From an uncultured Fibrobacteraceae bacterium (GTDB lineage: Bacteria; Fibrobacterota; Chitinivibrionia; Chitinivibrionales; Chitinispirillaceae), in the NCBI GenBank assembly GCA_964651515.1, contig CAZYYB010000001.1, forward strand, positions 15,068-79,067: a stretch of 64,000 bases of DNA, written 5' to 3'. Below the pieces are notes generated by a model. The model was given only the letters and a program-made list of their open reading frames with translations, did no database searches and was not told where the DNA came from. This document shows, in pieces, positions 1,925-19,047 of the stretch (its first letter is position 1; each line of letters starts with the position of its first letter). A program made the translations under genes and the position numbers.

Positions 1925-2488
1925 ATGCGGAAATTCATGCTTGCGACACTCGTGTTGTGGTTGACAGCAACCGGCGGCGAACCGCCCGCAGCGCATGCGC
2001 AGAAAGGAGCCGTTGCCATGCCCGCATTGTCCGTAACGAGCCAGGCGTTTAAAAATATGCAGCCCCTCCCCGGGAGGTACGGCTGCGACGGCGACGATAT
2101 TTCGCCGCCGCTCTCCTGGAGCGGCATTCCGGCGGAAGCGGCGAGTATCGCCCTCATCTGCGACGACCCCGATGCGCCCCGCGCCGCCTGGGTCCACTGG
2201 GTTGCGTACGATCTTCCCCCCACCTGCAAAGGATTGCCGGAAGGGGTGGAAAAGAGCAAGACGCTCTCCACGGGCGGCTCCCAGGGGAAAAACGACTTTC
2301 AAAAGATCGGCTACGACGGTCCCTGCCCGCCGGGAGGAACCCATCGATACTTTTTCAAGGTTTACGCGCTCGACACCCCGCTCAAGCTGCCTCCCGGAAA
2401 AACCAGGCACGAGGTCGAAAAGGCGATGAAGGGACATATCCTGGCACAGGGCGAGATCGTCGGGACGTATACGGGTAAGCGGAACTGA
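1925..2488 (+). CDS. YbhB/YbcL-family phosphatidylethanolamine-binding (PEBP) protein, secreted
   Basis: 187 aa. N-terminal signal-like MRKFMLATLVLWLTATGG; motifs CDDPDAP, WVHWVAYD and GPCPPGGTHRYFFKVYALD. Confidence 0.85.
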   Translation: MRKFMLATLVLWLTATGGEPPAAHAQKGAVAMPALSVTSQAFKNMQPLPGRYGCDGDDISPPLSWSGIPAEAASIALICDDPDAPRAAWVHWVAYDLPPTCKGLPEGVEKSKTLSTGGSQGKNDFQKIGYDGPCPPGGTHRYFFKVYALDTPLKLPPGKTRHEVEKAMKGHILAQGEIVGTYTGKRN

Positions 2489-2661
2489 TAACGCACCCCC
2501 GCAACGCTCCCCCCTTAGGGAGAAAACACAAGAAAAAAAAGTTTCGTAGGGGCGACCTCCCACTAACCCGTTTTTCCTGAAGCCTGAGGTCGAAGCATTA
2601 AGTTTCAAGTTTTAAGTTGTTTTATTCCGTCCTCATACTTCATCCTTTTGTTTTCAAAACA

Positions 2662-2757
2662 TGCACGAAATGCACGTTTTTGATCATTAAATGGGGGTAA
2701 AAGTGGCGATATCGATCACGAAAACCCCTCTAATTGCACGAAATTTGCACGAAATTC
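2662..2757. repeat. Cluster of short direct repeats (T)GCACG(A/T)AA, including tandem TTGCACGAAAT x2
   Basis: Copies: tgcacgaaa 2662-2670, tgcacgttt 2671-2679, tcacgaaaa 2716-2724, ttgcacgaaat 2734-2744 and 2745-2755. The surrounding region is AT-rich and non-coding. Confidence 0.6.
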
Positions 2758-2886
2758 ACACTTAACTCATTGATTCAACCGAGAAATCGAATTTTTTATT
2801 TTTCATTTATTTTTTTCCGAGCCTCATTCCGGCAAAAATTGCCGGTTTTTCGACCTCCAAGGGGCTCCTCTCCGCCTCACCCCCGG

Positions 2887-2911
2887 CCCCTCTCCATAAA
2901 ATGGAGAGGGG
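2887..2911. repeat. Perfect 11-bp-stem hairpin, part of a dispersed CCGCCTCACCCC...GGAGAGGGG element
   Basis: CCCCTCTCCAT-AAA-ATGGAGAGGGG. The upstream CCGCCTCACCCC also occurs inverted at 45109-45148. Confidence 0.6.
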
Positions 2912-3432
2912 GGAGATCCGGGCATAGCTCACGCACCAGGTGCCGACGCCGATATTCCGACAATGTCAAAGAACAGGCGGCTGCCGGGGGCAGCGGCGCC
3001 GCCGCCACCCCCGAACCTTGCCGCAGCCTTTGTGAGCGCGAATACTCACTTCCCTTGAGCCACTCACCGGCCTGCGCCACGGTAGAGCTGCTACCCATCG
3101 ATAATATACACTAATTTTAAGTAAAAAGCAATAAAAATTATCAGAAATAATATTATGGGTTTAATGCTATGAAATAAAAAGAGATAAATACCATTATCCG
3201 ACATATTGAACCCCGTCGTTAAACTATAATATTGCTGACTGAGCGCGCCCACGCACCTGCAGCCGGGCCTTCAAGTTTGACGACAATTAAAATTTTGGGT
3301 CCCTGGAGCGTTTGGGATTATCGTGAACCTCCGATGAAAGGAGGTTGGATGATCAAAGACGAGCAAGTGAAAGGACTCATGACGGTTATGTCGTCTGGAA
3401 CCCCGTGGACACGGCGTGCCGTGACCCTGTCT

Positions 3433-3448
3433 CGGTTCATCCCCGCGC
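3433..3448 (-). CRISPR. Degenerate terminal (trailer) half repeat
   Basis: cggttcatccccgcgc equals the first 16 nt of the 29-bp repeat; the next 13 nt diverge. Confidence 0.6.
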
Positions 3449-3519
3449 TCGATCGCCTTGTCGACCCACCTGTTCAACGCGCGGTCGTCGATGCCGATAT
3501 CTATGGTTGCTCCGGCCAT
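3449..3519 (-). pseudogene. N-terminal fragment of a phage virion-morphogenesis-like gene, cut by the half repeat
   Basis: Minus-strand ATG at 3519 gives MAGATIDIGIDDRALNRWVDKAIE, then runs into the repeat. It resembles the fragment at 3712-3845 (MAGEAMEIKINDEDLL...). Confidence 0.4.
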
Positions 3520-3682
3520 TTGCTCCCTGCCCCGCGATAATGCCATTTTTTAATCAACGGATGGTTTGGCTCGGCACTTATACCGTCCGGGCGGGTCAGC
3601 GCTGTCGAAGAACGCTGATTGCCCCTTACTTCCGCTTGTATATCAGTTTTCCCGCCCGCTGCCTGTTCAGATAATCCAGATC

Positions 3683-3711
3683 CGGTTCATCCCCGCGCAT
3701 GCGGGGAACAT
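3683..3711 (-). CRISPR. Solitary full-length CRISPR repeat
   Basis: Exact 29-bp repeat, 221 bp from the half repeat and 398 bp from the next repeat. Confidence 0.9.
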
Positions 3712-3845
3712 CGCACGCTGTTGGTCATCACCTCGCCGATATTCTTCATGGCCGGGGACAGATCGTCGCCGCGCGCAAGCATGGCTCCGAGGCCATTTAA
3801 GAGGTCCTCATCATTAATCTTGATTTCCATCGCTTCGCCGGCCAT
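3712..3845 (-). pseudogene. Truncated phage virion morphogenesis protein (Mu G / P2 S-like), N-terminal 44 codons
   Basis: An SD (GGAGA) precedes the ATG at 3845. MAGEAMEIKINDEDLLNGLGAMLARGDDLSPAMKNIGEVMTNSV fits the family pattern (..I.I..D..L...L.....DL.P.M..IGE.L..S); the frame is cut at the repeat boundary. Confidence 0.55.
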
Positions 3846-4109
3846 GCTTGCATTATCTCCGTAAAAGGTCTATATTATGAACAGATGGGCGAACGGTGAT
3901 ATGCGCATCGATACCGTGAGCCGATGTTCGTGCAGGGCGCATCCTGCATAGTACTTTATTCTCCATACAAAAGTTTCCCTCTTCGTACCTTCGAATTCAG
4001 ATACTCAGGTTGTCCGGCAAAAAAATCGAATGATGCCCACATCCCGTTTCTTACTTCGGCGATAAAGGTCAGCCCCTTGGTTTTCTTTGCCTAGATGGCC
4101 TTGACATAT
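3712..4109. mobile_element. 398-bp block of phage-like DNA occupying one spacer slot
   Basis: Bounded on both sides by perfect repeats (3683-3711 and 4110-4138). Carries phage gene fragments on the minus strand. Confidence 0.7.
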
Positions 4110-5238
4110 CGGTTCATCCCCGCGCATGCGGGGAACATCGATATGGCGCTTACCGTGTGGAGGGCGTAACCGGTTCATCCCCGCGCATGCGGGGAACATC
4201 GCTGCCGTCGCATCGCCAACCTGGCGGATAACGGTTCATCCCCGCGCATGCGGGGAACATAGGGCATCTATCCTTCGGGCTCGCGCCGATCCCGGTTCAT
4301 CCCCGCGCATGCGGGGAACATCCGAGGAAGAGTTGCAGCTCGCGCGGGAAGAGCGGTTCATCCCCGCGCATGCGGGGAACATGTATCATGCCACATCATA
4401 CCCGTCAGAATATACGGTTCATCCCCGCGCATGCGGGGAACATTCCTTGGAACTGGATGGTGTCTGACAATGGGAAGCTTCATCCCCGCGCATGCGGGGA
4501 ACATTCGGGGAAGGCGCCGGTACCGCCGATCGATTGCGGTTCATCCCCGCGCATGCGGGGAACATCCCGCCGCTGCGGTCGCGGCGATAGCGCCGAAATC
4601 GTTCATCCCCGCGCATGCGGGGAACATCCACCTGGTCTGGGTGGGCTATGCAGCCATTCATGGTTCATCCCCGCGCATGCGGGGAACATATTGAAGTCGG
4701 TAATGCTCTCTACGCCCGATACGGTTCATCCCCGCGCATGCGGGGAACATCGCCGGCTGATGCAACGGGATTGGGCAGGGACCGGTTCATCCCCGCGCAT
4801 GCGGGGAACATATCGGCACATTCATTTTTCGAGTTCCAAGCGGCGGTTCATCCCCGCGCATGCGGGGAACATCGCTCGATGCCAGGGTTGCAGAGTGGAA
4901 CATGCGGTTCATCCCCGCGCATGCGGGGAACATGATCGGCACGGCAGCACGCATGTGGAGAGCATCGGTTCATCCCCGCGCATGCGGGGAACATAACTGC
5001 CGCACCAACGTTTTCCGGGCGGCATTCGGTTCATCCCCGCGCATGCGGGGAACATGCCCGCATCCTGCGAACGCTCCGGGAAGCGGTCGGTTCATCCCCG
5101 CGCATGCGGGGAACATAAACAGCCCGTTTTCTGGACCGGTCTCCGATTCGGTTCATCCCCGCGCATGCGGGGAACATATCTAAAATTAATTGCCTGATTT
5201 TATAAGCAGCGGTTCATCCCCGCGCATGCGGGGAACAT
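4110..5238 (-). CRISPR. CRISPR array segment A (older part): 19 repeats, 18 spacers
   Basis: 29-bp repeats at 61-bp period, with two 62-bp steps. Variant repeats start at 4476, 4599 and 4661. No leader of its own. Confidence 0.97.
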
Positions 5239-5402
5239 TTTTTGGCATTACCCCGGAGCAGGACGCCTGGCTCTCTCAGGAGGCCGAACGCCGCCAGATT
5301 AGCCGATCCGCTGTCGTCCGGGCACTGATCGACAAGGCACGGCAGGAGGGCGACCATGCCCTCCCCGCCAGTCGCTCGGTTTCCCGGCGCACAGCGTTAT
5401 AG
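5239..5402 (+). pseudogene. Ribbon-helix-helix (CopG/Arc-like) gene, 5'-truncated at the repeat
   Basis: FFGITPEQDAWLSQEAERRQISRSAVVRALIDKARQEG shows a beta-strand/helix/helix RHH pattern. There is no in-frame start after the repeat. Confidence 0.5.
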
Positions 5403-5508
5403 CATCAAAAAAACATTTAAGGCGCGATTTTGCCCGGAATTATATTATATGGTAATAGGCTAAACGGCCTAAAATCAAAACCTTACACATTCCATCAAGG
5501 AGGGGTAT

Positions 5509-5754
5509 ATGGCGAAGGTCACGGCGGAAATGGTTGCGGCGATCAAGGCAGGAACGGAATCTGTAACGTCAATTGCTACATCAGCGGGTGTCTCGCGGCA
5601 AGCGGTTTTTCAGATTATGAAAAAGTATTCAGCAAGCGAACCGGTCGCCCCAGCTGCTCCCGCCAAGGCTGCGAAGTCGGAACCAAAGAAGAGCAAGAAG
5701 GCTCCTGGCGAAATCCCCGAATCACAGCGCTTGCCGGAATCGGTCCCCGCGTAA
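5509..5754 (+). CDS. Small HTH DNA-binding protein (81 aa) with Lys/Pro-rich tail
   Basis: Strong SD (AAGGAGGGG) 4 nt upstream of the ATG. Upstream TTGCCC..TATATTATAT is promoter-like. HTH-like segment: SIATSAGVSRQAVFQIMKKY. Confidence 0.6.
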   Translation: MAKVTAEMVAAIKAGTESVTSIATSAGVSRQAVFQIMKKYSASEPVAPAAPAKAAKSEPKKSKKAPGEIPESQRLPESVPA

Positions 5755-5767
5755 TTCAACTTTCAAG

Positions 5768-5789
5768 GGGCCGGTAATCCCTCCGGCCC
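5768..5789. terminator. GC hairpin between convergent ORFs (possible bidirectional terminator, no clear U-tract)
   Basis: GGGCCGG-taatccct-CCGGCCC, a 7-bp stem. Confidence 0.35.
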
Positions 5790-5971
5790 TAATCCTCAAA
5801 AATGCTCAATTGGTCCTTGTCTTTAAATTCCTTTTTACCAAGCCACCATTTCCACAAATCTTCAGCCGTCGCATAGTGCTTTGCGAGAGTCCACTTCTCC
5901 TCTACCGCTTTTGCATGCAACCGCCATATCCAGCGTTTCCAGCTCGCAACAATGCGCGGGGCGACCTTCAT
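5789..5971 (-). CDS. Small Trp/Lys-rich hypothetical protein (60 aa)
   Basis: GAGGAGGG SD sits 2 nt before the ATG at 5971. Sequence MKVAPRIVASWKRWIWRLHAKAVEEKWTLAKHYATAEDLWKWWLGKKEFKDKDQLSIFED. Same orientation as the pre-crRNA. Confidence 0.4.
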   Translation of the reverse strand: MKVAPRIVASWKRWIWRLHAKAVEEKWTLAKHYATAEDLWKWWLGKKEFKDKDQLSIFED

Positions 5972-5996
5972 ACCCTCCTCATAGGCATGCGCACTG

Positions 5997-8900
5997 CGGT
6001 TCATCCCCGCGCATGCGGGGAACATCGGCACTCTCCATGACACCCTATGGCATTGAACGGTTCATCCCCGCGCATGCGGGGAACATTGAATCACCAGGCG
6101 TAAAGTAGCGCGCGCTGGCGGTTCATCCCCGCGCATGCGGGGAACATTCATCGGCATCACCCCCTTCTGTAGGTGTATTCGGTTCATCCCCGCGCATGCG
6201 GGGAACATTTTACAAGCCGGTTCATACAATTGGTAAGAGCCGGTTCATCCCCGCGCATGCGGGGAACATGAGCCGAGCTTGCCCATGCCCTCGAAGGTCT
6301 GCGGTTCATCCCCGCGCATGCGGGGAACATACCATTTCGCTTTCCTCTTCACCACGCCCAGCCGGTTCATCCCCGCGCATGCGGGGAACATTGGAGGGCG
6401 GGCACGCCCAGCGGATGATCTACCGGTTCATCCCCGCGCATGCGGGGAACATGTCGAAGTTCATTCCCCGCCGTCCATAGTATCCGGTTCATCCCCGCGC
6501 ATGCGGGGAACATATCGGCTGTCCGCACACCTCGCATTTGGTCTGCGGTTCATCCCCGCGCATGCGGGGAACATATCCCGGGAATGGTCCATTTATCCAG
6601 GCGCTGCGGTTCATCCCCGCGCATGCGGGGAACATCACGTCGCCGTTGGGTTTGGTTATCCCGCCGCCGGTTCATCCCCGCGCATGCGGGGAACATGGAT
6701 CGATCTGCGCCAGGGCGTGCGACGTGTCCGGTTCATCCCCGCGCATGCGGGGAACATGAGTTTCGCCTCACGGAGTTGAGTCAGTATGACGGTTCATCCC
6801 CGCGCATGCGGGGAACATACCATGATTGCCTCGCAGAGCGACAACCAGACCGGTTCATCCCCGCGCATGCGGGGAACATACTTCCACCAGCTTTACTGCC
6901 TCTTCTCCATACGGTTCATCCCCGCGCATGCGGGGAACATCCGCCTGCGGGCTCTTTGGCGCCCTCAAAAACCGGTTCATCCCCGCGCATGCGGGGAACA
7001 TCCCGTGCCGAATCCTATCGAAACGAGCGTCTCCGGTTCATCCCCGCGCATGCGGGGAACATAGTTCGGCGCTCCCCACCCGCACCCGTCGTCGCGGTTC
7101 ATCCCCGCGCATGCGGGGAACATGTGCCTCCTGGACTATGGTTAAGGGTTTACTACGGTTCATCCCCGCGCATGCGGGGAACATCGCATCCGGCAACCCG
7201 TAATAATTCCAGATAGCGGTTCATCCCCGCGCATGCGGGGAACATTTTTCAAACCCCTTGGATGCAATCCTTACATTCGGTTCATCCCCGCGCATGCGGG
7301 GAACATTTCCACTGGTGGCGAAATGCTCAGGACACAGCCGGTTCATCCCCGCGCATGCGGGGAACATCGGCGCATTTACAGGAGGCAGGCATACCCGGCC
7401 GGTTCATCCCCGCGCATGCGGGGAACATCTTATTGGAGCGGATATATTCCCAAACATCCGCGGTTCATCCCCGCGCATGCGGGGAACATTCGATAACCCG
7501 GACGGCCTTGATTGCCTCAGCCGGTTCATCCCCGCGCATGCGGGGAACATTTTCTTCATTGCGGTGAGGCCGTCGCTGAATGCGGTTCATCCCCGCGCAT
7601 GCGGGGAACATGCGAGCTGGTCAAGGTGTTTCTGGAAGTCGGCCGGTTCATCCCCGCGCATGCGGGGAACATTGTGAAGTGGTAGCGATGCGGAATTTTG
7701 GGAACGGTTCATCCCCGCGCATGCGGGGAACATCGGCGACTGTATGCGCTGCCGCGTTGGTGCCGCGGTTCATCCCCGCGCATGCGGGGAACATCTTATC
7801 AGCGGTTGACGAAAGAGTGGCAAAACCGGTTCATCCCCGCGCATGCGGGGAACATGGTAGTTGACCTTGCGGGCGTATCACCTCGGCCGGTTCATCCCCG
7901 CGCATGCGGGGAACATAGTGGGGTATCGAATTCGGGCACGTCAGCCCGCGGTTCATCCCCGCGCATGCGGGGAACATTTTCCTGAATCTGTCCTGCCATG
8001 ATGAGGCTCCGGTTCATCCCCGCGCATGCGGGGAACATCGCTTGGACTTTGGAGCGCGGTGACCGCCCGACGGTTCATCCCCGCGCATGCGGGGAACATG
8101 CGCCTATCTCGGGCAGATCACTATTTACATGCGGTTCATCCCCGCGCATGCGGGGAACATTTTTACTCCTGAGAGCTATCCCGTAGAGATGCAGGTTCAT
8201 CCCCGCGCATGCGGGGAACATAGCAGCTCGAATTTCCAGTCGATCGGCTTTGCCGGTTCATCCCCGCGCATGCGGGGAACATTGTATCCCTGACTATCTT
8301 CTCCATATCAGGGACGGTTCATCCCCGCGCATGCGGGGAACATCTGGGCGCGTGAGAAGCGCCGACAGTGGGGAGCGGTTCATCCCCGCGCATGCGGGGA
8401 ACATTGCGATTGTTCGCATTCGGCCATTGCAGCTACCGGTTCATCCCCGCGCATGCGGGGAACATGCGCACCTGAGCCGCTTCGTCATCGCTCAACCCGG
8501 TTCATCCCCGCGCATGCGGGGAACATTTCGAGTTGACGCGCGAAGAACATATTGTAACCGGTTCATCCCCGCGCATGCGGGGAACATCTGATTTCAGGGC
8601 TTGGAACATCGCACCATAACGGTTCATCCCCGCGCATGCGGGGAACATCCGTTATCCCATGCCACGGAAAAATCCCCAGCCGGTTCATCCCCGCGCATGC
8701 GGGGAACATCCTATATGTTATCAAATTAGATGGTTGGGAATCGGTTCATCCCCGCGCATGCGGGGAACATATGATGGGACATGATCGGCGGCTTTCCACG
8801 ACCGGTTCATCCCCGCGCATGCGGGGAACATGTGTTTTTCGGCGGCGCTGTCCATGACTCCCTAGGTTCATCCCCGCGCATGCGGGGAACATGCGGCTCC

Positions 8901-9502
8901 TGAATACATCAAGGCGGCGGCGTACGGTTCATCCCCGCGCATGCGGGGAACATGACAACTGCGCTTCGGCGAACCGCTGGACCTGCGGTTCATCCCCGCG
9001 CATGCGGGGAACATCTCTAATGCAATCTGGCAAGATAAACGGGTAGCGGTTCATCCCCGCGCATGCGGGGAACATTAATATCGGGGACCCTGTTTATTTG
9101 ACCTTGACGGTTCATCCCCGCGCATGCGGGGAACATATATACCATGGCAAAATAAGTTAGCCGAAACGCGGTTCATCCCCGCGCATGCGGGGAACATAAC
9201 TTGTTCTGGGAGAATGGTCCTGCCCGCACCGGTTCATCCCCGCGCATGCGGGGAACATTTGCGGGCTTGCGCCTGCGCTGCGGTGAGTGCCGGTTCATCC
9301 CCGCGCATGCGGGGAACATGGACCTTGAACCAAGGGCCTGAATTAATCGGCCGGTTCATCCCCGCGCATGCGGGGAACATATCTGAAGACTGATTGAAGA
9401 ATGCCGCCCCTTCGGTTCATCCCCGCGCATGCGGGGAACATGCAGAACCCAAAAACCCTATAATACGGCAAACCGGTTCATCCCCGCGCATGCGGGGAAC
9501 AT
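5997..9502 (-). CRISPR. CRISPR array segment B (leader-proximal): 58 repeats, 57 spacers, all 32 bp
   Basis: Strict 61-bp period from 5997 to 9474. The reverse complement ATGTTCCCCGCATGCGCGGGGATGAACCG resembles the E. coli I-E repeat. Variants at 8193 and 8864. Confidence 0.98.
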
Positions 9503-9630
9503 ACTAATATCTTTCTCATTGATTTTGCTCAAGATACAAATTTTGAAAAGTTCTACCGATTTTTTTTATCATCCAGAGATTTCAAAGAGCTTGCCTCTAT
9601 ACTTTACTTTCGATCGACCACGCTTCCTCG
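9503..9630 (-). promoter_or_regulatory. CRISPR leader (AT-rich)
   Basis: 128-bp AT-rich stretch between the last cas-operon gene and the first repeat, in the position and orientation typical of I-E loci. Confidence 0.7.
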
Positions 9631-10209
9631 TCAAATCGCCTTCCTTTTAGGTAAAAATGCATCCTTCGGCAGGCCAAGCGGCAACCCTTCAAGCACGATT
9701 TTCGCGCACGCGAGCGCATCCGATTTTGCATCGTGGTGCTTGAGCGGGATACCGAGCCGGTTGCATACGTTGGGCAGCTTTGTCGGGTAAATATCCCACA
9801 GGCGCCGGGCAAGCTTTACCGTGCACAGGAATTTGACCTCTGGAGGTTTGACCGCGGCGCCGAGGCAGCAGGAGTGCAACACGGACCGGTCAAACGATGC
9901 GTTGTGCGCCGCGATAAAGTCGACCTCATGCAGGAGCGACCGCATACCTGGCCACAGCTCGGCGAAATTCGGTTTCTCTGCGACGTCCTCCCAGGTGATT
10001 CCATGAATGTGGGTAAAGACAAAATCACGCCGCGGCGGACGGATCAGGGCATGCGCCTTGTGAACGATTTTCCCCTTTTCCACCACGACTATAGCCGCCG
10101 CACAGGCGCTGTCGCGACCCTGGTCGGCGGTCTCGAAATCGATTGCCGCGAATCTTTCAAGGGATTCACTTTTGGAAACTTTCGGCATTTTCTTTTTTGT
10201 TGCCGTCAC
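9631..10209 (-). CDS. Stand-alone DEDDh (DnaQ-like) 3'-5' exonuclease, last gene of the cas operon
   Basis: 192 aa. Exo I AIDFETAD, Exo II FIAAHNASFDRSVL, Exo III HHDAKSDALACAKI. Starts 6 nt after the cas2 stop. Confidence 0.85.
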   Translation of the reverse strand: MTATKKKMPKVSKSESLERFAAIDFETADQGRDSACAAAIVVVEKGKIVHKAHALIRPPRRDFVFTHIHGITWEDVAEKPNFAELWPGMRSLLHEVDFIAAHNASFDRSVLHSCCLGAAVKPPEVKFLCTVKLARRLWDIYPTKLPNVCNRLGIPLKHHDAKSDALACAKIVLEGLPLGLPKDAFLPKRKAI

Positions 10210-10215
10210 GATTCT

Positions 10216-11417
<1,202 letters not shown>

Positions 11418-11428
<11 letters not shown>

Positions 11429-11840
11429 AAAAAGCTCGCTTGAGCGGATCCGTCAGGCGCAGGAGTTCAACGAAATGGGTAAAGGAAAAACGGCGGACCA
11501 GCAGGGAGGCAGGGGCTGATAATTCCGTTGAAGGCAATTCCACGGTAACCAATGCAGAAATCTGCGGGTAGGTCCGGTAGAACTTCCTGAAAAGCTGGAG
11601 GTTCCTCGCAGAAAAACCGCGTCGGGCAATGGCACCTTCGTCACGCCGCCGTGCGAGGCGGGGAACCGGATTCGTTCCGTATTCAGCCCGGTCGCTGCCC
11701 GACCGCTCATACTCAACAATGTGCCTGCCGATCAGCCAGTTCCTGAAGGTGAGCGTTCGATTCACCGAACCGACGGCAACCCGGCCCATTGCCTCATGCA
11801 CCCGCCCGATTACCGTCGCCGGCTCTTCAAAAATTCCCAT
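11418..11840 (-). pseudogene. DUF1016_N (YhcG-like N-terminal domain) ORF lacking the PD-(D/E)xK nuclease half
   Basis: 140 aa. RTLTFRNWLIGRHIVEYE..RAEYG..GFSARNLQLFRKFYRTYP..FTHFVELLRL.DPLKRAFY matches the YhcG N-terminal pattern, then stops. Overlaps the cas1 start by 11 nt. Confidence 0.55.
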
Positions 11841-11920
11841 TATCCGAATTCCTTCTTACACCGGTTTCACGAGCAGGAGGCCGCAGCCGAAGGCCTTGGC
11901 GGGACCGGGGAGCGGCGTCT

Positions 11921-12610
11921 TCATTCCGCATAAGCCATTCTTACCCTGCGGGGTGAAAACCTTCTATTATCAGATGCAAATGAAACCGGAATATCCGGCA
12001 ATGAATCGCGTCCCTCCGCAAAAGTTTCGGCATCTTCCTGGAAGGTATACTTTTCCAACGCATCTATTTTCAGCAATCGCAGGGCGTCCTCTTTGGATGT
12101 TGCCATGCCGGCAAGCACCGGTGCCGTCGGGATACAGCTCTTGCGGCCGAGCCATATTCCCCAGACCGGATCGGCCAACCCGGCAGCTATCTTTTCTAAT
12201 ACTTCCGGCTTTCCCTCAAGAATCACGCCGAACATTGCATCGGAGAGATAACCTCGGTGAGTAATATGGCATGGTTTGGCATTTCCATCGGCAGTCACGG
12301 TATTTAGCACCGTATGATAATCCTGCAGACGACGAACCTTTAATACCTCCTTTTTAATCTGGTCCTTAAACTTTTTATCGACAATGCGGGGTATGGCGAT
12401 TGAAATCATTCGAAGACCCCTAAATTCCTCAAGAAATCGGCTCTCCTCAGAACCTCCACGGTTATACCCCAGCGCGGCGCAGCATATGCCGCCGATGGCG
12501 CTCTTTGTCGGCATGAGTCCGGTATTGCGGCGGTTGTATTGGCTGTCGAAACCCCAGGATTGCAGAGGACCCTCCAGACGAAGGGCCAGAAAGCGGCCAT
12601 TAATTGACAT
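11921..12610 (-). CDS. cas5: Cascade subunit Cas5e (CasD)
   Basis: FLALRLEGPLQSWG...NTGLMPTKSAIGGICCAALG. The start at 12610 is preferred (alternative 12637). Overlaps the cas7 stop. Confidence 0.9.
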   Translation of the reverse strand: MSINGRFLALRLEGPLQSWGFDSQYNRRNTGLMPTKSAIGGICCAALGYNRGGSEESRFLEEFRGLRMISIAIPRIVDKKFKDQIKKEVLKVRRLQDYHTVLNTVTADGNAKPCHITHRGYLSDAMFGVILEGKPEVLEKIAAGLADPVWGIWLGRKSCIPTAPVLAGMATSKEDALRLLKIDALEKYTFQEDAETFAEGRDSLPDIPVSFASDNRRFSPRRVRMAYAE

Positions 12611-13637
12611 GTGTCGCCACCTCGTCGAGGAAGGCATTCATGCCGACATCGGGAATTGCTTTTTCGAAAATAGCCTTTACGCCCCAGGTGTTATTGAGTT
12701 TTTCATATTCCTCTTTGAGAAGATCGATGGATTTTTGCGCATATCCCTGCATCGAGCGCACGGGGCTCTCAAAGGCATTGGAAAGCTGAATCGGATGACC
12801 TGTTTCTCGAACCACACCGAGGACATAGGCGGGAAGAGTATTCCCGTTCATGGTATTCTTTCGTGCGCAGGGAATCGCTTTTATCGTCGCTTCTACAAAG
12901 GTGCGAACGACATTCTGCCTATCCTCCCTGCTCAAGCTTCCCAGATGCGCCGCATCCGCGAGCATATCGAGGTTGAGAGCGGCAAACCGATAATAGGTCG
13001 CGGAATTGAATTCAATGGTGCTTGTCATGCCCGCGCCGGATTCTTCCTTGGATTGCAAGTCGTCCACGGCGGAAAAAAAATCGATCTCATTATCGACCTT
13101 ATGTGTCGAAAGTGCATGCGAAAACATCGATGCAGCTTCAACGGTCAATGTATGATCATTGGCAACCATACGTCCAAAAATAGAAATATCGGCCGCATCA
13201 TTAATTGCTTTCCCATTGATTGATTTTATGGCCTTTTTTACATCCTTGGTTGCAAAATAGGCCTTAGCTATAGTTTCCAATTCAAGCGGCGACATGAAAT
13301 AAAGAGTTTTGGATTTGACCTTATCGGTGGACTTTTCATCAATTTTTACCAATGCATCAACAATGCTCTTTGAGGCATCCAATGCCTCGGTTTCACCTAA
13401 CCCGGTAGATTTCATTGCATTAAAAAGCGGCTCAAACATTAGTCGTGTTCGTTCACCCTTATAGTGCTTTGGTAAAATCTCCTTTGCTATTTCCCGTATC
13501 GCCCGTTTCCACGACTGGCTTGATACCCTCGCTCGCTGAACACCTCCGAAAACTGCGGTCTTAGGCGAGTTGAGGTCATCGCGATTGAGGCAGGAAACCG
13601 GTACCGACTGAATGATGTGAAGTTCCAGATGTTTCAT
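12600..13637 (-). CDS. cas7: Cascade backbone subunit Cas7e (CasC/Cse4)
   Basis: 345 aa. N-terminus: MKHLELHIIQSVPVSCLNRDDLNSPKTAVFGGVQRARVSSQSWKRAIR. Confidence 0.92.
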   Translation of the reverse strand: MKHLELHIIQSVPVSCLNRDDLNSPKTAVFGGVQRARVSSQSWKRAIREIAKEILPKHYKGERTRLMFEPLFNAMKSTGLGETEALDASKSIVDALVKIDEKSTDKVKSKTLYFMSPLELETIAKAYFATKDVKKAIKSINGKAINDAADISIFGRMVANDHTLTVEAASMFSHALSTHKVDNEIDFFSAVDDLQSKEESGAGMTSTIEFNSATYYRFAALNLDMLADAAHLGSLSREDRQNVVRTFVEATIKAIPCARKNTMNGNTLPAYVLGVVRETGHPIQLSNAFESPVRSMQGYAQKSIDLLKEEYEKLNNTWGVKAIFEKAIPDVGMNAFLDEVATHVN

Positions 13638-13665
13638 TGTTCTTCTCCTTATGGTTTATAATTGT

Positions 13666-14352
13666 TTAAAAATTCACCGGAGACAACAAAAAAAGGCCGA
13701 ATCCAAATCCTTTGGCGCTGCCGATGCCCTGATGATAAGTTGCTTCGAATTTTTCCGAATCCGTCACTTCGAGCGTTCCGCGAAACTGGACGCCGCCATG
13801 ATAGCCATAATGATCTTTTTTTCGGAAGTAACGTTCTGCCATGGGTCTGATTTCAAGCGGTTTCTCTTCAACTATCCGAAATCCGCCGGGAACATCAACG
13901 CCGGTATTGCAATCCTTGCATCGCACGTTCCCTTTTTGAGTAATCCAGGCACGAAGCTCTTCCCGGTCAACAAGTGGTATTCGTTTGCCATGTTCTCGTT
14001 TTCCATTCGGGCGTCGGAGCGTTTCCCCATTCGGGCCTCTCAGGACTTTTGTTTTAGTCGGATTGGCCCACAGATCGAAAGCGTAAAAACGATGTCGCAG
14101 AAAAGATGGGGCGATCTCCTTAAGGGAAAACCTTTCCTGTAAACACCAATCAGGACGCCTCGGCCGACAGCGGGCAAGCAACCATAGACGAAATGCGCCT
14201 TCGACGATATCGATACGGGACAGGAAATCCCGTTTCTTATCTGGCTGGTCGGGAAAACATTCCCACAGCCTTTGATGCCAGAAATAGGAATCGACAATTC
14301 CTTTGGAAATAGCATTTTTTGCATCCATTTCCATGCGGACGAGCCAGCTCAT
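13666..14352 (-). CDS. cas6e: pre-crRNA endoribonuclease Cas6e (CasE)
   Basis: 228 aa with C-terminal GIGSAKGFGFGLFLL motif. Overlaps cse2 by 4 nt. Confidence 0.88.
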   Translation of the reverse strand: MSWLVRMEMDAKNAISKGIVDSYFWHQRLWECFPDQPDKKRDFLSRIDIVEGAFRLWLLARCRPRRPDWCLQERFSLKEIAPSFLRHRFYAFDLWANPTKTKVLRGPNGETLRRPNGKREHGKRIPLVDREELRAWITQKGNVRCKDCNTGVDVPGGFRIVEEKPLEIRPMAERYFRKKDHYGYHGGVQFRGTLEVTDSEKFEATYHQGIGSAKGFGFGLFLLSPVNF

Positions 14353-14843
14353 ACAACCTCCGCTTCATCACCGGAAACCGCATGAGGTGCCCAGAATGCC
14401 ATGCCCCATTCGGTTTTGGTACGGTCGTTCCAATAGCGCAGGTCCGACAAAAGTTTTTCGTAATTGACCGAAATGCTCTGTGCCTTTGCCATGAAAACCA
14501 TGCGGGCAATACGCTCATGAAGTTCATTTCCCGGTTCGGCGGAAAGCAGATGCTGAAAGCGACGTTCCGTTGGGGTGAGTTTGTTATCGTCGCTTCGCTT
14601 CTCACTCCGCCTTTGTTCGATAATTCTGCAAGTGTTCCCAAAGTTTCCCGATGGCGTTTCATCAGGATGGGCGGAAAAAAGCCCGGCAACGAGAGTTGCA
14701 ATATCGTCGCCGATATCGATACCCATTCGGTTGAGCACCGGCCATGCTCGATGTTTTTTGCTTTCCACCAGCACACACCGAAGATTGGCCATCATACCAC
14801 GGTTATCGGCGTAGCGACGGATTCGCTCCAAAAGCGTACTCAT
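14349..14843 (-). CDS. cse2: Cascade small subunit Cse2 (CasB/Cas11e)
   Basis: 164 aa and helical, placed between cse1 and cas6e with 4-nt overlaps on both sides. Confidence 0.85.
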   Translation of the reverse strand: MSTLLERIRRYADNRGMMANLRCVLVESKKHRAWPVLNRMGIDIGDDIATLVAGLFSAHPDETPSGNFGNTCRIIEQRRSEKRSDDNKLTPTERRFQHLLSAEPGNELHERIARMVFMAKAQSISVNYEKLLSDLRYWNDRTKTEWGMAFWAPHAVSGDEAEVV

Positions 14844-16408
14844 GCTTCGACCTCCTTGTGTTCGGGTGTGTCGGATTCGGCCTTTTTTTCTGATAGTAAT
14901 CTCTGAAAGCCTTTTGCAAAAGCGCGCATCCGGCGCGGCGATTCACAACCGCATGCAACGCGAAAGGCATCGCAGGCTGTTGCAAAAAGCATTTTTCTCC
15001 ATGCATCGCGCGTAGGGAGTGCCGCGTCGGTGTCAATGGCCGCTATATGTGACATGAGCAGCGGAAGGTTCTTTTCAACGGTGGTCCAGTAATGAACAGT
15101 TGCAAGAGAATGGAGCTTAGCCTTGAGAGCACCCTTAGCAGGTCCTGCGCTTTTTAATTGGCCTTCCCATCCGCCGTCGATTTCAGTACGATATACTTCA
15201 ATCGCCCAGCCAAGGCGGCCGGCAACAGTTTCTGCATTACGTACTTCTTCCTCATATATAATATGTCCATCAGCGGAAAGAAGCTTTGCCGGAATATGAA
15301 ATACCGATTCTGAAGTATCAACAATAGTTGCCTGATCGCGAGCTAATGCGGAAACAACCAAATCGCATTCCTCACCTTCCTGCAGTGCGCAAAGCGAAAG
15401 AGGGCCACCTAACCCATTTGCGGCACGCTTGGTGACCACGGCGGAAAGCTCCCGCCAAAGTGCACGAGAGGGTCGATATGAAAGCAGGATTCTTTCTTCT
15501 TTTTTGGCGATCTTTCGGATCAAAACAGTAGCGCTTGGCTCAGGCGGAAACCCATTGGAGTAGGGCGGGTATTCCAACCCATCGCCTAATAACATTTTGG
15601 AACCGGCCTGGTGAAGCAAAATCAACCGGGTCATTGGAACCAATCTGCCTATATAAGTCTGTGTCGCATTGGCTATTCCGGCTGTATCGGAAAACGAACC
15701 AGGTGGGCATTCCCATACTGGATTCCCTATGCCCAGATTTCCGTAACTTGACCGGATATCATCATAGGAGGGTAAATTCAGGCGAAGCGATTCAAGCAGG
15801 TTTTCACCGCGCAAAAAAGCGTGAATCATTGACGCTGAAACGCAAGGGCCGTCCTTTGATGATTTTCCCGTTTGGGCGTTATTCCAGTATACCTGTGAAA
15901 TAAGCCCGCCCGGAGAAAAACACTGAAAGGTAATCATTGAAACGAGGGTCTCACTTATAGAAATGCTGCGATTGATGGCCATTCCCGCATGGTCAAAGAA
16001 TGTGGTATTATTGCCGGTAGATAATGAAAAATTGAGTTTTGAAACCGGCGACCATAAGGATAAATCATCCTTCGAAATCTCTTCTTGGTTTTTTGATAGG
16101 CCGGTTATCTGAAGCCATGGCTTCTTTTTATGGAACAATTCAAATGATTCTTTCCATTCCTTTAAATATCTTCGGACTGCCTCGGGCAATTTTTTAGGCA
16201 CCTCGCGCCACTCATTATAATCCTTCGGCCCGTTAAGTGCAGCATGGGCAACACAGAGGAAAAGCCTCATGAGCGCGACGCGTTCATGGGGCCGAACCGA
16301 TAAATCTGCAAAACGATCTCCCTTGGTGAGCACCTCGCAGAGGCTTGCCAATTCCGGCACTCCTTCTGAAGTTACTACCGGAATCCACGGATCAAAGGCA
16401 ACATTCAT
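14840..16408 (-). CDS. cse1: Cascade large subunit Cse1 (CasA/Cas8e)
   Basis: 522 aa. N-terminus: MNVAFDPWIPVV...RPHERVALMRLFLCVAHAAL. Overlaps cas3 by 4 nt. Confidence 0.9.
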   Translation of the reverse strand: MNVAFDPWIPVVTSEGVPELASLCEVLTKGDRFADLSVRPHERVALMRLFLCVAHAALNGPKDYNEWREVPKKLPEAVRRYLKEWKESFELFHKKKPWLQITGLSKNQEEISKDDLSLWSPVSKLNFSLSTGNNTTFFDHAGMAINRSISISETLVSMITFQCFSPGGLISQVYWNNAQTGKSSKDGPCVSASMIHAFLRGENLLESLRLNLPSYDDIRSSYGNLGIGNPVWECPPGSFSDTAGIANATQTYIGRLVPMTRLILLHQAGSKMLLGDGLEYPPYSNGFPPEPSATVLIRKIAKKEERILLSYRPSRALWRELSAVVTKRAANGLGGPLSLCALQEGEECDLVVSALARDQATIVDTSESVFHIPAKLLSADGHIIYEEEVRNAETVAGRLGWAIEVYRTEIDGGWEGQLKSAGPAKGALKAKLHSLATVHYWTTVEKNLPLLMSHIAAIDTDAALPTRDAWRKMLFATACDAFRVACGCESPRRMRAFAKGFQRLLSEKKAESDTPEHKEVEA

Positions 16409-19047
16409 ACATCCTCCCCGCCGGTTGATTTCTCGATAACGAGCCCCAATTTATCCGTGTAAATAAAACGGATACCATCTTTTAATCCTTCAACTTCGAC
16501 AAATCCATTTTCTCCTACGACCGCAACACTTTGTGCACCGTGAAGATAGGCAGAAAACGTCAGGCAGGGCTCCACGTGTTCAAAGCAGTATGCAGGAACC
16601 TTCACCAGATTTTTATGGATCGCCTGAGCAGTCGCAAGCCGGAATTCATCGCCGCCAATGCTGCCTCGGGTAGCATCAAAAAAAATGGCTTCATTTTCTG
16701 AAAGTTCATGGCATAGCACAATCGAAACGGTCGGCATATCGTTAAGACGGGTTTGCACGCCCTCTTCGTCCGGCAACTGCAACTGCCAGTAGTTGCTGTT
16801 CAACAGGGCTTTGAATCGTTTATTCGAATCACTGACAAATCTATCATCAATCAGTTTCTGCCAGGATTCAGGGTCATCATCACGTTCCCGGTAGGTTGCT
16901 TCAAGAATTTCCCTGATTTGTCCCGGAATTTTTATGCAAGGATAGTCTTGCCATGTTTGCAAAGTTCGAAGCAGGACAAAAGGATCATAAACACGTGCCT
17001 TGCCGCCAAGAGTCTCCATTATTTCCCTAGATTTCATATCTCGAAACTCTTTAAGGCATTTTTCTTCTTCGATGATAATTATTTGCGGTTCCTTAACAGG
17101 ACGATTTCCCCTTTTGTGACGCCACAATCGGCCGAGTCGCTGCAAGAGCATATCGGTGGGTGCTAGCTCGGTAATCATCAAATCGGCATCGAGGTCGACA
17201 CTCTGCTCAACAATTTGCGTCGAAACCAGAATTGAGCCGCATCTAGTATCGCTGCTTTTCCCAAGTCGTTCCATCCATTCGTTTTCAAGTTTCTCGCGCC
17301 GGTGGAATGGAAAGCGTGAATGGAGCAGGCCGAGGCGAATACCCTTTCCTGAAAATTCTTTAAACCGACGGAATTGGTTCTGCGCTCCATTAACAGTATT
17401 GCAAATCCAGAGAATGCATCCGCCTTTTTCGGCAAGTTCAATGGCCTTCTCCATAGCCTGGCCTTCGGATTTAAAACTTACCTGCACTTCGAGCGAACCC
17501 GGCGGCGTCGCCGGGACCGGATTCAGCAGTATTTCCCCTTGCCGCCCCGAAACAAGCGGATACGGCAGATTTGAATCATCTTCGGCCGCATTATTGCCGG
17601 AGGCGATGATTTGTCCGCGTCGTTTTCCCGTAAGTGTGGCAGACAGAATAATTACCGTACATCCCAGGCCCTCAAGGGATCTTATCAGTTTATCTATCAG
17701 CGTACCGGTATACAAGTCGTATGAATGTACTTCATCAATAACAACCACTTTTCCCGCCAGAGCAAAATGGCGGACAAAGAAATGCTTTGCCGCGACTACT
17801 CCGAGAAGCGCCTGATCAACAGTACCGACCCCAAACGGAGCGAGCAAAGCTCGCTTTGACGATGCAAACCAGTCTCGGCCATAACGGGCATCATTACTTG
17901 CAGAACAAATGCCCGTAGCGACAGGAGCGATGCCGGCATCGGCGTCCATCAGCCAGGAATTACCATGAATAAGTCGAATCCTATTAGATTCCGGTGAAAT
18001 TCGACTTATGAATTCATTCACCCGAAGATGTATGCGGTTACTCGTTGCCTGGGTCGGGAGCGCGAAATATATGCCCGTTGCCTTCCCTTCGGCAAGCAAT
18101 AGGTAAGCAGCCCATAACGCAGCCTCGGTTTTGCCCATGCCCATTGGGGCCTCTATAACATAAACACCGGGTGCAGTTATTGCCGCAGCCGTTTTCGCCT
18201 GCATGTCATTTGGTGACCAAATGATTCCAGGTTTTTTTCTATCAAGGAATAATTCATGAAAGGAAAGACCGTGAATAATTTCGGGCCTTTTGAATCCAAT
18301 AGTGCGGAGTGCTTTACTGGCAGATTCATCGGGGTCGAATGCCGCCGTATTGGGATCAGATCGGAAGAATCTTTCATCCGATCCTATCCAGTCCGCCACC
18401 GAGGTAAGGCCTGCAAGCCACCAAAGTGCAGGTAAGGAATCATTGATCTCCGTGATTTCAGTATTGCCGGCAAAAACACGCCATACATTTCGTGCTGCGG
18501 TATCTCTTTCTTTTTCCCAATCGATGCCGCTCCTGTTTTCTGAGATCGCCCCTTGCGGGTGGTAACCACGATCATTTGGAGGATTCAAACGGCCATGATG
18601 TCCACCCAGCACCGCCGATAAAAATTTTGCCGTTTTACAATCGCTGCATAGCTCCGATAGAAAATTTTGGATAGCGGCATGGGAAACTTTTCCATGGTCT
18701 GATTCCATACGGGTATCCCAGCAACCATTTCGGGCAATACCCGATAACCCATTCTCCTCAAGCCAGGTTGTGCACTTCATTTGAAATCCGGGTGATATTT
18801 TGCCGAGATCATGCAGGGCCGCAAGCGCCCCGACTTCGGCAGAATTTAATTGAAAGCGTTCAAGAAGATTTTTTGAAAGTTCAGCCATTCGCAGCGCAAC
18901 ATATCCTACATTAGTCATGTGTTCCGTAACGGAAATTCCCGGCTTATCCTCAGAAGTTGTTTTAGCCCAAAAATGGTTATTTGTCACACTTACCCCCTGC
19001 GGCGACATCTGAGCAAGGATACGGCAGAAAAAAATTCCGGTAGTCAT
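16405..19047 (-). CDS. cas3: Cas3 HD nuclease/SF2 helicase
   Basis: 880 aa. HD region (LHDLGKISPGFQ), Walker A (APMGMGKTEAAL) and DEVH box (IDEVHSYD). Confidence 0.95.
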   Translation of the reverse strand: MTTGIFFCRILAQMSPQGVSVTNNHFWAKTTSEDKPGISVTEHMTNVGYVALRMAELSKNLLERFQLNSAEVGALAALHDLGKISPGFQMKCTTWLEENGLSGIARNGCWDTRMESDHGKVSHAAIQNFLSELCSDCKTAKFLSAVLGGHHGRLNPPNDRGYHPQGAISENRSGIDWEKERDTAARNVWRVFAGNTEITEINDSLPALWWLAGLTSVADWIGSDERFFRSDPNTAAFDPDESASKALRTIGFKRPEIIHGLSFHELFLDRKKPGIIWSPNDMQAKTAAAITAPGVYVIEAPMGMGKTEAALWAAYLLLAEGKATGIYFALPTQATSNRIHLRVNEFISRISPESNRIRLIHGNSWLMDADAGIAPVATGICSASNDARYGRDWFASSKRALLAPFGVGTVDQALLGVVAAKHFFVRHFALAGKVVVIDEVHSYDLYTGTLIDKLIRSLEGLGCTVIILSATLTGKRRGQIIASGNNAAEDDSNLPYPLVSGRQGEILLNPVPATPPGSLEVQVSFKSEGQAMEKAIELAEKGGCILWICNTVNGAQNQFRRFKEFSGKGIRLGLLHSRFPFHRREKLENEWMERLGKSSDTRCGSILVSTQIVEQSVDLDADLMITELAPTDMLLQRLGRLWRHKRGNRPVKEPQIIIIEEEKCLKEFRDMKSREIMETLGGKARVYDPFVLLRTLQTWQDYPCIKIPGQIREILEATYRERDDDPESWQKLIDDRFVSDSNKRFKALLNSNYWQLQLPDEEGVQTRLNDMPTVSIVLCHELSENEAIFFDATRGSIGGDEFRLATAQAIHKNLVKVPAYCFEHVEPCLTFSAYLHGAQSVAVVGENGFVEVEGLKDGIRFIYTDKLGLVIEKSTGGEDV

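Follow-up and report, generated by a model that had tools for sequence, protein, structure and literature searches.

A question raised by the type I-E CRISPR array in an uncultured Fibrobacteraceae bacterium is how 758 bp of gene-bearing DNA came to stand where a single spacer would be expected. The array lies in a stretch of 64,000 nucleotides (GenBank assembly GCA_964651515.1, contig CAZYYB010000001.1, positions 15,068 to 79,067 of the forward strand), which we call the window and whose own numbering is used unless another contig is named. The inter-repeat intervals of the array measure 32-33 nt throughout, the exceptions being 398 bp (3712-4109, block B) and 758 bp (5239-5996, block C). Block C, a piece of foreign DNA with genes on it, takes up the place of exactly one spacer. 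The reading that we prefer, with a probability of roughly 0.45, is that a contiguous 758-bp fragment of a mobile element or of other foreign DNA was integrated untrimmed by Cas1-Cas2.

A gene-bearing block in one spacer slot

An initial annotation, made from the sequence alone, had described block C as non-array DNA that stands in for one spacer and divides the array, and this description held. Both flanking repeats show 0 mismatches and lie in the same orientation, the upstream one being perfect and not degenerate, and ordinary spacer-repeat units continue on either side. The GC content of the block is lower than that of the surrounding array. Its features are the following, RHH and HTH standing for ribbon-helix-helix and helix-turn-helix, and ORF for open reading frame:

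5239..5996, no strand: block C, 758-bp pseudo-spacer, foreign DNA in a single spacer slot (repeat listing; assembly comparison)
5210..5238, minus strand: leader-distal flanking repeat, perfect (repeat listing)
5997..6025, minus strand: leader-proximal flanking repeat, perfect, ending in G in transcript orientation (repeat listing)
5239..5402, plus strand: 3' part of an RHH (CopG-type) gene, first 8 codons missing (Pfam match; relative P0004, see below)
5509..5754, plus strand: 81-aa ORF with an N-terminal HTH and a Lys/Pro/Ala-rich tail (ORF call; AAGGAGGGG upstream)
5971..5789, minus strand: 60-aa Trp/Lys-rich ORF (ORF call; GAGGAGGG ahead of the ATG, which is 25 nt from the repeat)
5768..5789, no strand: 7-bp GC hairpin between the convergent ORFs, without a T-run (fold analysis)

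Whether the junctions hold, a point that the initial annotation had left for checking, was settled by four independent metagenome assemblies in which they are identical. Four contigs, one from each of four samples in two data sources (JGI 3300041809 and 3300014199, ENA ERZ27250145 and ERZ27249945), encode exactly this HTH protein, and they are 99.8-100% identical to the window, the left junction being covered by all four and the right junction by two. Because two of the four are MEGAHIT contigs built at k = 141, a false join at a 29-nt repeat is unlikely. Arrays are hard to assemble and the window comes from a metagenome-type assembly, but an assembly chimera joined at the repeats is scarcely credible, given that the same junctions recur in assemblies from different samples and pipelines, including the k = 141 contigs that far exceed the repeat in length. 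One of the JGI contigs (L001, 12653-12684) has a different spacer at window position 8161-8192 and then ends; it is a diverged variant of the array, and at least two population variants share all older units, blocks included.

The RHH fragment shows how sharply block C ends. Its reading frame runs out of the repeat at 5210-5238, and the earlier proposal that the repeat cuts the 5' end of this gene exactly was confirmed by an intact, 82%-identical relative, P0004 (51 aa, MKSITKQKFFGLTPEQ..., N-terminus MKSITKQK-FFGLTPEQ), which is encoded on two ENA contigs (L104 and L105) without CRISPR repeats. The match of the window fragment to Pfam RHH_1 is weak (score 17.8, gathering threshold 20.5), and that of P0004 exceeds the threshold (22.2). 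At the DNA level, L104 is 87% identical to the window from 5237 to 5368, and because this identity begins at 5237, the RHH gene is cut after codon 8 by the repeat, and the flank is coding DNA and not leader. Similarity to the relative thus reaches the repeat at the leader-distal end with no unaccounted bases; the leader-proximal part, 5369-5996, is covered by no relative. On L104 (1363-1859) and L105, a gene for a pentapeptide-repeat protein follows the intact RHH relative and another lies upstream. P0004 is the sole relative found for any part of block C, and its 1.8-kb contigs may belong to a mobile element or to a chromosome. We also observed that the repeat at 5210-5238 provides the RHH frame with an in-frame plus-strand ATG (5226), giving a 58-aa product that is reported by gene callers, and that on the plus strand the hairpin of this repeat together with a T-run of block C looks like a terminator.

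The 81-aa HTH ORF and the 60-aa Trp/Lys-rich ORF were found as previously described. Family matches of the HTH ORF were all below threshold and of the transposase-type HTH kind (one source labels it a 'transposase-like protein'), and no relative was found among 5.8 billion proteins (the window's own was returned), in IMG/VR, in phage records (tblastn) or among PDB sequences. The 60-aa protein had no family, PDB or IMG/VR match and no credible relative among 1.84 billion representatives; its single-sequence AlphaFold model is helical and of low confidence (predicted local distance difference test score, pLDDT, 64), too poor for a fold search. The IMG/VR scans with the two small proteins, in line with a check that had been suggested, thus yielded no relative of either. 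The starts of the two convergent ORFs are inverted look-alikes, Shine-Dalgarno regions included (5514-5538 versus 5945-5969, AGGAGGGGTATATGGCGAAGGTC versus GAGGAGGGTATGAAGGTC), and the N-termini are alike as well (MAKVTAEMVA in the HTH protein, MKVAPRIVA in the 60-aa protein).

The 60-aa ORF is co-directional with the precursor CRISPR RNA (pre-crRNA) and convergent with the HTH gene. Read from an ATG in the repeat (6004-6002, minus strand), it becomes 71 aa long, and this longer version is reported by one gene caller. If cutting proceeds as in E. coli, the cut RNA would begin with an 8-nt 5' handle, AUGAACCG; the ATG at 6004 is the first base of this predicted handle and is in frame with the 60-aa ORF, a curiosity whose accidental odds are 1 in 3. 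Some regulatory features proposed for the block fared less well. The HTH gene had been credited with a promoter-like sequence of its own, but a consensus scan of 5100-6100 yielded no sigma-70-like promoter. The GC hairpin at 5768-5789 is present, with 7 bp, but neither a terminator at this hairpin nor unusual stability was found, the folding of the region being unexceptional (z = -1.5).

Searches for the source of block C and for variants of the array gave the following results. Block C had no match in phage and plasmid records (blastn), and there is no second copy of it within the window. A 21-mer of the RHH fragment had no match in a scan of IMG/VR, and a metagenome scan returned 36 loci that were all chance matches. 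The neighbouring spacer had no match in a metagenome collection, which does not include the samples with block C, and exact look-ups of the ORFs called across the array returned nothing new and no block-free variant. Array variants that carry the ends of block C as ordinary spacers were likewise sought, and none was found.

Trailer blocks, the type I-E locus and long blocks elsewhere

Two further blocks lie at the trailer end of the array, and both come from phage DNA:

3712..4109, minus strand: block B, 398-bp pseudo-spacer in which a Mu-F-like head-morphogenesis gene (3' end) is followed by intergenic DNA and by codons 1-45 of a virion-morphogenesis gene (protein similarity)
3448..3682, minus strand: block A, 235-bp pseudo-spacer, oriented like block B and orthologous to it but from a different Mu-like phage (protein similarity)
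3432..3447, minus strand: half repeat (3' 16 nt) fused to block A at the RGD codons (sequence comparison)

Blocks A and B share zero DNA identity, yet they are collinear in protein sequence. Each opens with the C-terminus of an ORF (..YLN..GKL.Y, then a stop) and continues with the N-terminus of a second gene (MAG..I.I.D..L...RGD), and the similarities between the A and B proteins each exceed all 2,000 shuffles. The second gene is a virion-morphogenesis gene that is 47% identical (E = 1e-4) to an annotated gene of a 37-kb Vibrio phage. The end of the first ORF aligns with the extreme C-terminus of a Mu-F/PBECR2 head-morphogenesis protein in a third block, L052b (L052 2823-3939), which belongs to a Desulfobacterales genome and in which this protein is itself truncated by a repeat. 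Two unrelated hosts thus harbour three blocks that cover one and the same point of Mu-like phage genomes, all of them co-oriented with the CRISPR RNA (crRNA). A search with the block B fragment against 5.8 billion proteins returned the window's own proteins alone.

Because likeness in protein without likeness in DNA means that the divergence occurred in living phages, the captures are separate ones; and because random capture would rarely re-hit a locus of ~0.4 kb in a genome of roughly 37 kb, a targeted process is indicated. Judged from the encoded proteins, blocks A and B are captures of one locus from two Mu-like phages that differ from each other, and such phages may have a hot spot of capture where the F-like gene ends and its neighbour begins. 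At the place homologous to the half-repeat junction of block A, block B has a look-alike, GCGCGGCGACGA, and the best reading of the junction is that look-alike sequences later underwent a deletion between them. Around 3383-3431 we noticed what may be one more spacer and a degenerate final repeat. The idea that block B represents eroded repeats (398 = 6 x 61 + 32) was rejected, block B being phage coding DNA.

The array that holds these blocks belongs to a type I-E locus with the following parts:

3683..9502, minus strand: type I-E CRISPR array, 78 repeats (repeat listing; leader at the high-coordinate end)
9503..9630, minus strand: AT-rich leader, ~30-40% GC (base composition)
9631..19047, minus strand: complete type I-E cas operon (profile matches)

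In the repeat listing of the window, the repeat CGGTTCATCCCCGCGCATGCGGGGAACAT occurs 78 times within 3683-9502. Its minus-strand form, ATGTTCCCCGCATGCGCGGGGATGAACCG, resembles the E. coli I-E repeat, and because the repeat orientation is of this type, transcription runs from high to low coordinates, with the oldest units at 3683. The older segment comprises 19 repeats at 4110-5238 and one more at 3683, and the newer segment 58 repeats. The locus has Cas3, Cse1, Cse2, Cas7, Cas5, Cas6e, Cas1e and Cas2e, a 29-nt repeat and 32-nt spacers, as expected of type I-E, and its gene order is cas3, cse1, cse2, cas6e, cas7, cas5, a 140-aa DUF1016_N ORF, cas1, cas2 and a DEDDh/DnaQ exonuclease gene. All Cas proteins scored above the NCBIfam cut-offs, except that Cas3 passed with its domain models and not with the full-length model. 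We noticed that cas6e (13666-14352) is placed between cse2 and cas7 instead of after cas5; that the 140-aa ORF between cas5 and cas1 (11418-11840) consists of the N-terminal domain alone of DUF1016 (YhcG-type nuclease family); and that a stand-alone gene for a DEDDh/DnaQ-type 3'-5' exonuclease (9631-10209) lies between cas2 and the leader. In some I-E systems, a DEDDh domain is fused to Cas2 and trims prespacers. The 75 spacers, concatenated, had no match in phage records that would reveal the protospacer-adjacent motif (PAM) of the system itself; nor did the spacers match the window, the blocks or the related loci.

A PAM had been proposed for block C, because CTC at 5271-5273, which is GAG in transcript orientation, immediately precedes its last 32 nt. 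The motif is indeed there, but it carries no evidential weight, and four control blocks show no PAM at this position. The argument presumes that the last 32 nt of a block once were a spacer. As a control set, one genome per species was scanned for the same repeat: 30-35 nt was the length of 1,718 of the 1,743 inter-repeat intervals, and the four credible long blocks have ACC (L096), GTT (L052a), GAA (L052b) and GCT (L102) at the corresponding place. A true AAG immediately before the last 32 nt was seen in block B alone among the blocks compared. GAG permits interference in E. coli but is no acquisition PAM, and type I-E spacers come overwhelmingly from AAG. The GAG of block C is uninformative because a genuine former spacer would show it about as rarely as chance (1/64).

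At the other edge of the blocks, the upstream repeat ends in G in all seven credible cases (A, B, C, L096, L052a, L052b and L102). Among the repeats of the array itself, 73/78 end in G, and the deviating 5/78 (4476, 4599, 4661, 8193 and 8864) differ solely at the end that adjoins the following spacer. In E. coli I-E, the terminal base of the repeat enters with the spacer and derives from the PAM (PMC3737337). Two neighbouring spacers of the array, 4566-4598 and 4628-4660, are 33 nt long.

The control loci deserve a short description of their own. L052 (1566-4716) consists of three or four mutually diverged repeats separated solely by blocks of 0.7-1.2 kb, with zero normal spacers; L052a holds a 305-aa ORF running into a repeat, and L052b holds the truncated Mu-F/PBECR2 gene with the 5' part of the next gene. 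Its matches to phages are confined to the Mu-F gene (67-78%), and among the ORFs tested on this 8-kb piece there was no protein-family match, hence no cas gene; L052 looks like an orphan array made of pseudo-spacers alone. In a Pseudomonadales genome, L096 (1951-4672) has a 2.7-kb block between identical repeats of an 11-repeat array, with ORFs that by eye resemble a ParA-type ATPase and, at 407 aa, an AAA-type ATPase; the block had no match in a plasmid collection. L074 was rejected as a control block, being two tandem arrays with different repeat variants. These arrays (2433-5017 in transcript orientation) lie 998 bp apart, the DNA between them by eye resembles a ParD/ParE toxin-antitoxin pair, and such a tandem arrangement is mistakable for a pseudo-spacer.

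Possible routes of block C into the array

In the reading that we prefer, the Cas1-Cas2 integrase would have put a prespacer of excessive length into the array, at the repeat that was leader-proximal at the time. A PAM would have determined one of its ends, the other being neither measured nor trimmed, and the repeat would have been doubled on integration, just as when an ordinary spacer is acquired. The setting was probably priming, in which adaptation concentrates on a region that is a target already; this is probable because both trailer blocks come from one phage locus, and primed adaptation of this kind could reconcile capture by Cas1-Cas2 with the phage hot spot. Thereafter Cas6e would cut both flanking repeats and release an RNA of ~790 nt that could not be built into Cascade, so that block C would confer no immunity; its genes would be passengers, and the 20 older repeats would depend on read-through across it. 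Expression of the older crRNAs may be reduced, as had initially been suggested.

Several observations argue for integrase capture: in each of four assemblies, and in two variants of the array, the slot between perfect repeats is filled exactly; the homology with the intact RHH gene of L104 reaches the junction; neither inverted terminal repeats nor a transposase is present; SiL-E1, an archaeal block discussed below, offers a precedent; the upstream repeat has its G at every credible block; most blocks lack a PAM 32 nt from the far end, which fits one selected and one arbitrary end; the blocks are rare, and their contents are phage or plasmid gene fragments cut mid-gene; and a complete adaptation module, with an exonuclease of the DEDDh trimming type, lies beside the array. 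Other points weigh against it. The Cas1-Cas2 ruler holds spacer length tightly, and we know of no demonstration of kilobase-scale integration by Cas1-Cas2 in vivo. The source element was not found, so that the AAG just beyond the leader-proximal edge is no more than an expectation. The repeat-end G is the default of the array (73/78) and would be retained by any route that preserves repeats. Finally, exactly 32 nt separate the AAG of block B from the far end of that block, a single phage locus gave rise to both A and B, and recombination with resident spacers explains both facts at least as well.

Such recombination is a close rival, though somewhat less probable; like integrase capture, it would explain why junctions coincide exactly with repeat boundaries. 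Invader DNA would have recombined with two matching resident spacers, by a double crossover or by integration followed by deletion, replacing the intervening repeat or repeats, and the first and last 32 nt of a block would be former spacers. This would account for the canonical AAG right before the last 32 nt of block B (chance 1/64) and for the arrangement of blocks A and B, which occupy neighbouring slots, point the same way and represent orthologous, collinear segments of two different Mu-like phages; the block in an unrelated genome spans the same gene end, a pattern that homology between spacers and a conserved region would yield. The far junction of block A falls within a repeat at a look-alike sequence, so that recombination has acted here, and a recombination scenario is the second one proposed for SiL-E1. 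However, the motif of block C is GAG, about as rare with real I-E spacers as by chance, the four comparable blocks elsewhere have ACC, GTT, GAA and GCT, two matching spacers in collinear order would be needed for each event, none of the array's spacers matches any block, and no variant was found with block ends as ordinary spacers.

Other rearrangements, namely illegitimate recombination at repeats (by microhomology or template switching), insertion of a transposon, or retention of an inter-array region, are unlikely. Imprecise recombination is attested here by the half-repeat junction of block A, the apparent block of L074 is really two tandem arrays, and transposons account for most of the long spacers found in the arrays of E. 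coli, P. aeruginosa and S. thermophilus (PMC4524480). Against this, 5/6 junctions of the window's blocks lie exactly at a repeat boundary, and the microhomology at the 5238 junction in L104 is 2 nt only. A transposon was rejected for block C, which has no terminal inverted repeats, no target-site duplication and no transposase above threshold, and an RNA family was rejected as well, there being no Rfam match. The inter-array leader was rejected too: the DNA beside 5238 is GC-rich RHH coding sequence (60-68% GC at 5239-5400) that continues in L104, and the flanking repeats of block C are identical, with 5997-6025 perfect and the upstream one not degenerate. A broader proposal is that pseudo-spacers are the product of a targeted capture pathway, through primed adaptation or spacer-guided recombination, that repeatedly takes one Mu-like region, and that the array could express its captures, with the block C RNA freed by Cas6e carrying a 5'-terminal AUG in frame with the 60-aa ORF. 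We regard this as quite unlikely. The captured region lies just upstream of the anti-CRISPR gene site in Pseudomonas Mu-like phages.

The anti-CRISPR reading and known counterparts

The initial annotation had seen in block C the classic layout of anti-CRISPR (acr) genes with an anti-CRISPR-associated (aca) regulator. The co-directional gene upstream of the HTH gene is, however, the truncated RHH gene, the small ORF is convergent, and there were no family matches. Block C thus differs from an acr-aca operon, where aca is directly preceded by one or more small acr ORFs that read in its own direction. Comparison of the HTH protein with general family libraries, PDB and phages, although no search aimed at Aca/Acr families was made, gave no match that would make it a known Aca. 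Moreover, 57 spacers were added after the arrival of block C (58 newer repeats), and because these postdate it, adaptation at least must have stayed active. On the sequence evidence, nothing indicates that block C would be an anti-CRISPR cassette.

We therefore consider it very unlikely that the block is a functional cassette, with the HTH protein as a regulator of the Aca kind and with an anti-CRISPR or other invader gene in the 60-aa ORF (or in what is left of the RHH gene), kept for its action on the host system and expressed from the CRISPR promoter. It is true that the two ORFs are undamaged, that each has a Shine-Dalgarno sequence and is the same in all four samples, that the 60-aa ORF is co-directional with the pre-crRNA and in frame with the AUG heading the predicted Cas6e-cut RNA, and that anti-CRISPRs are typically small orphan proteins. 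But no Aca, Acr, other family, solved structure or relative matches either protein, the small ORF is not upstream of the HTH gene in one operon, and the array went on to gain its 57 spacers. In addition, blocks A and B and those of L052 are plainly dead gene fragments, so that cargo function is unnecessary for such blocks, and the identity between samples reflects one recent population and not selection. The likeness to acr-aca operons of phages and plasmids lies in a small HTH protein near a small orphan ORF on foreign DNA; the differences are that the ORF of block C is convergent, that the HTH protein is unlike any known Aca, and that the cassette sits in a host array that kept acquiring spacers.

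Whatever their route, pseudo-spacers show that a spacer slot can take DNA of 10-80 times the normal length. Either the ruler of Cas1-Cas2 is fallible in nature, or there is recombination between arrays and the invaders that they target. Both options matter for the evolution of arrays, for the horizontal capture of genes and for DNA recording with Cas1-Cas2. If targeted capture were true, arrays could sample, and occasionally domesticate, whole invader genes. The array is a useful test case, with three blocks, two of them from one phage locus, in a population sampled several times, and ancestral variants or sources may be recoverable from reads; what most deserves further work is that one locus of Mu-like phages was captured repeatedly. 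There is also a warning for annotation, since array finders split such arrays and gene callers name the cargo.

Among known arrangements, E. coli CRISPR2.2/2.3 are tandem arrays separated by a leader-bearing region. Tandem arrays such as L074 resemble the present case in having two repeat runs of the same orientation ~1 kb apart, but the repeat variants of L074 differ and its upstream run ends in a degenerate repeat, whereas the repeats of block C are perfect and its flank is truncated coding DNA. In staphylococci, work attributed to Varble and colleagues (2019) is said to describe recombination between phage and array through spacer-protospacer homology, giving transducing phage-CRISPR hybrids. 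There, too, invader DNA is joined to an array at matching spacers, but what is described are hybrids of that kind and not stable chromosomal blocks; here, a PAM-flanked terminal 32-mer is found in block B only. Insertion sequences can also cause long 'spacers' (intervals of >= 100 nt) that carry genes (Kupczok et al. 2015, PMC4524480). These transposons sit inside a spacer or repeat, whereas block C abuts complete repeats and has neither a transposase above threshold nor terminal inverted repeats.

The closest precedent, and the sole described one that we located in the literature, is SiL-E1 in CRISPR_2 of Sulfolobus islandicus LAL14/1, where two perfect repeats enclose ~2 kb of pING1-like plasmid DNA (82% identity) with five ORFs (Jaubert et al. 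2013, PMC3718332). Two origins were put forward in that paper, a fault in the processing of the protospacer and recombination with spacers already resident. Block C is a new bacterial type I-E example of this rare, already described kind, the 'pseudo-spacer', which has barely been studied; new as well are the two further trailer blocks from one Mu-like phage locus and a third capture in an unrelated genome. In both cases, a kilobase-scale fragment bearing ORFs lies between perfect repeats, with normal units on both sides. Similarity to the source runs up to the repeats in SiL-E1, and in block C similarity to the RHH relative does so at the leader-distal end. SiL-E1 is archaeal, ~2 kb long and of known source, whereas block C is bacterial, of type I-E, 758 bp long and without a source found, and its array, unlike that of SiL-E1, has two further blocks that both come from one phage locus.

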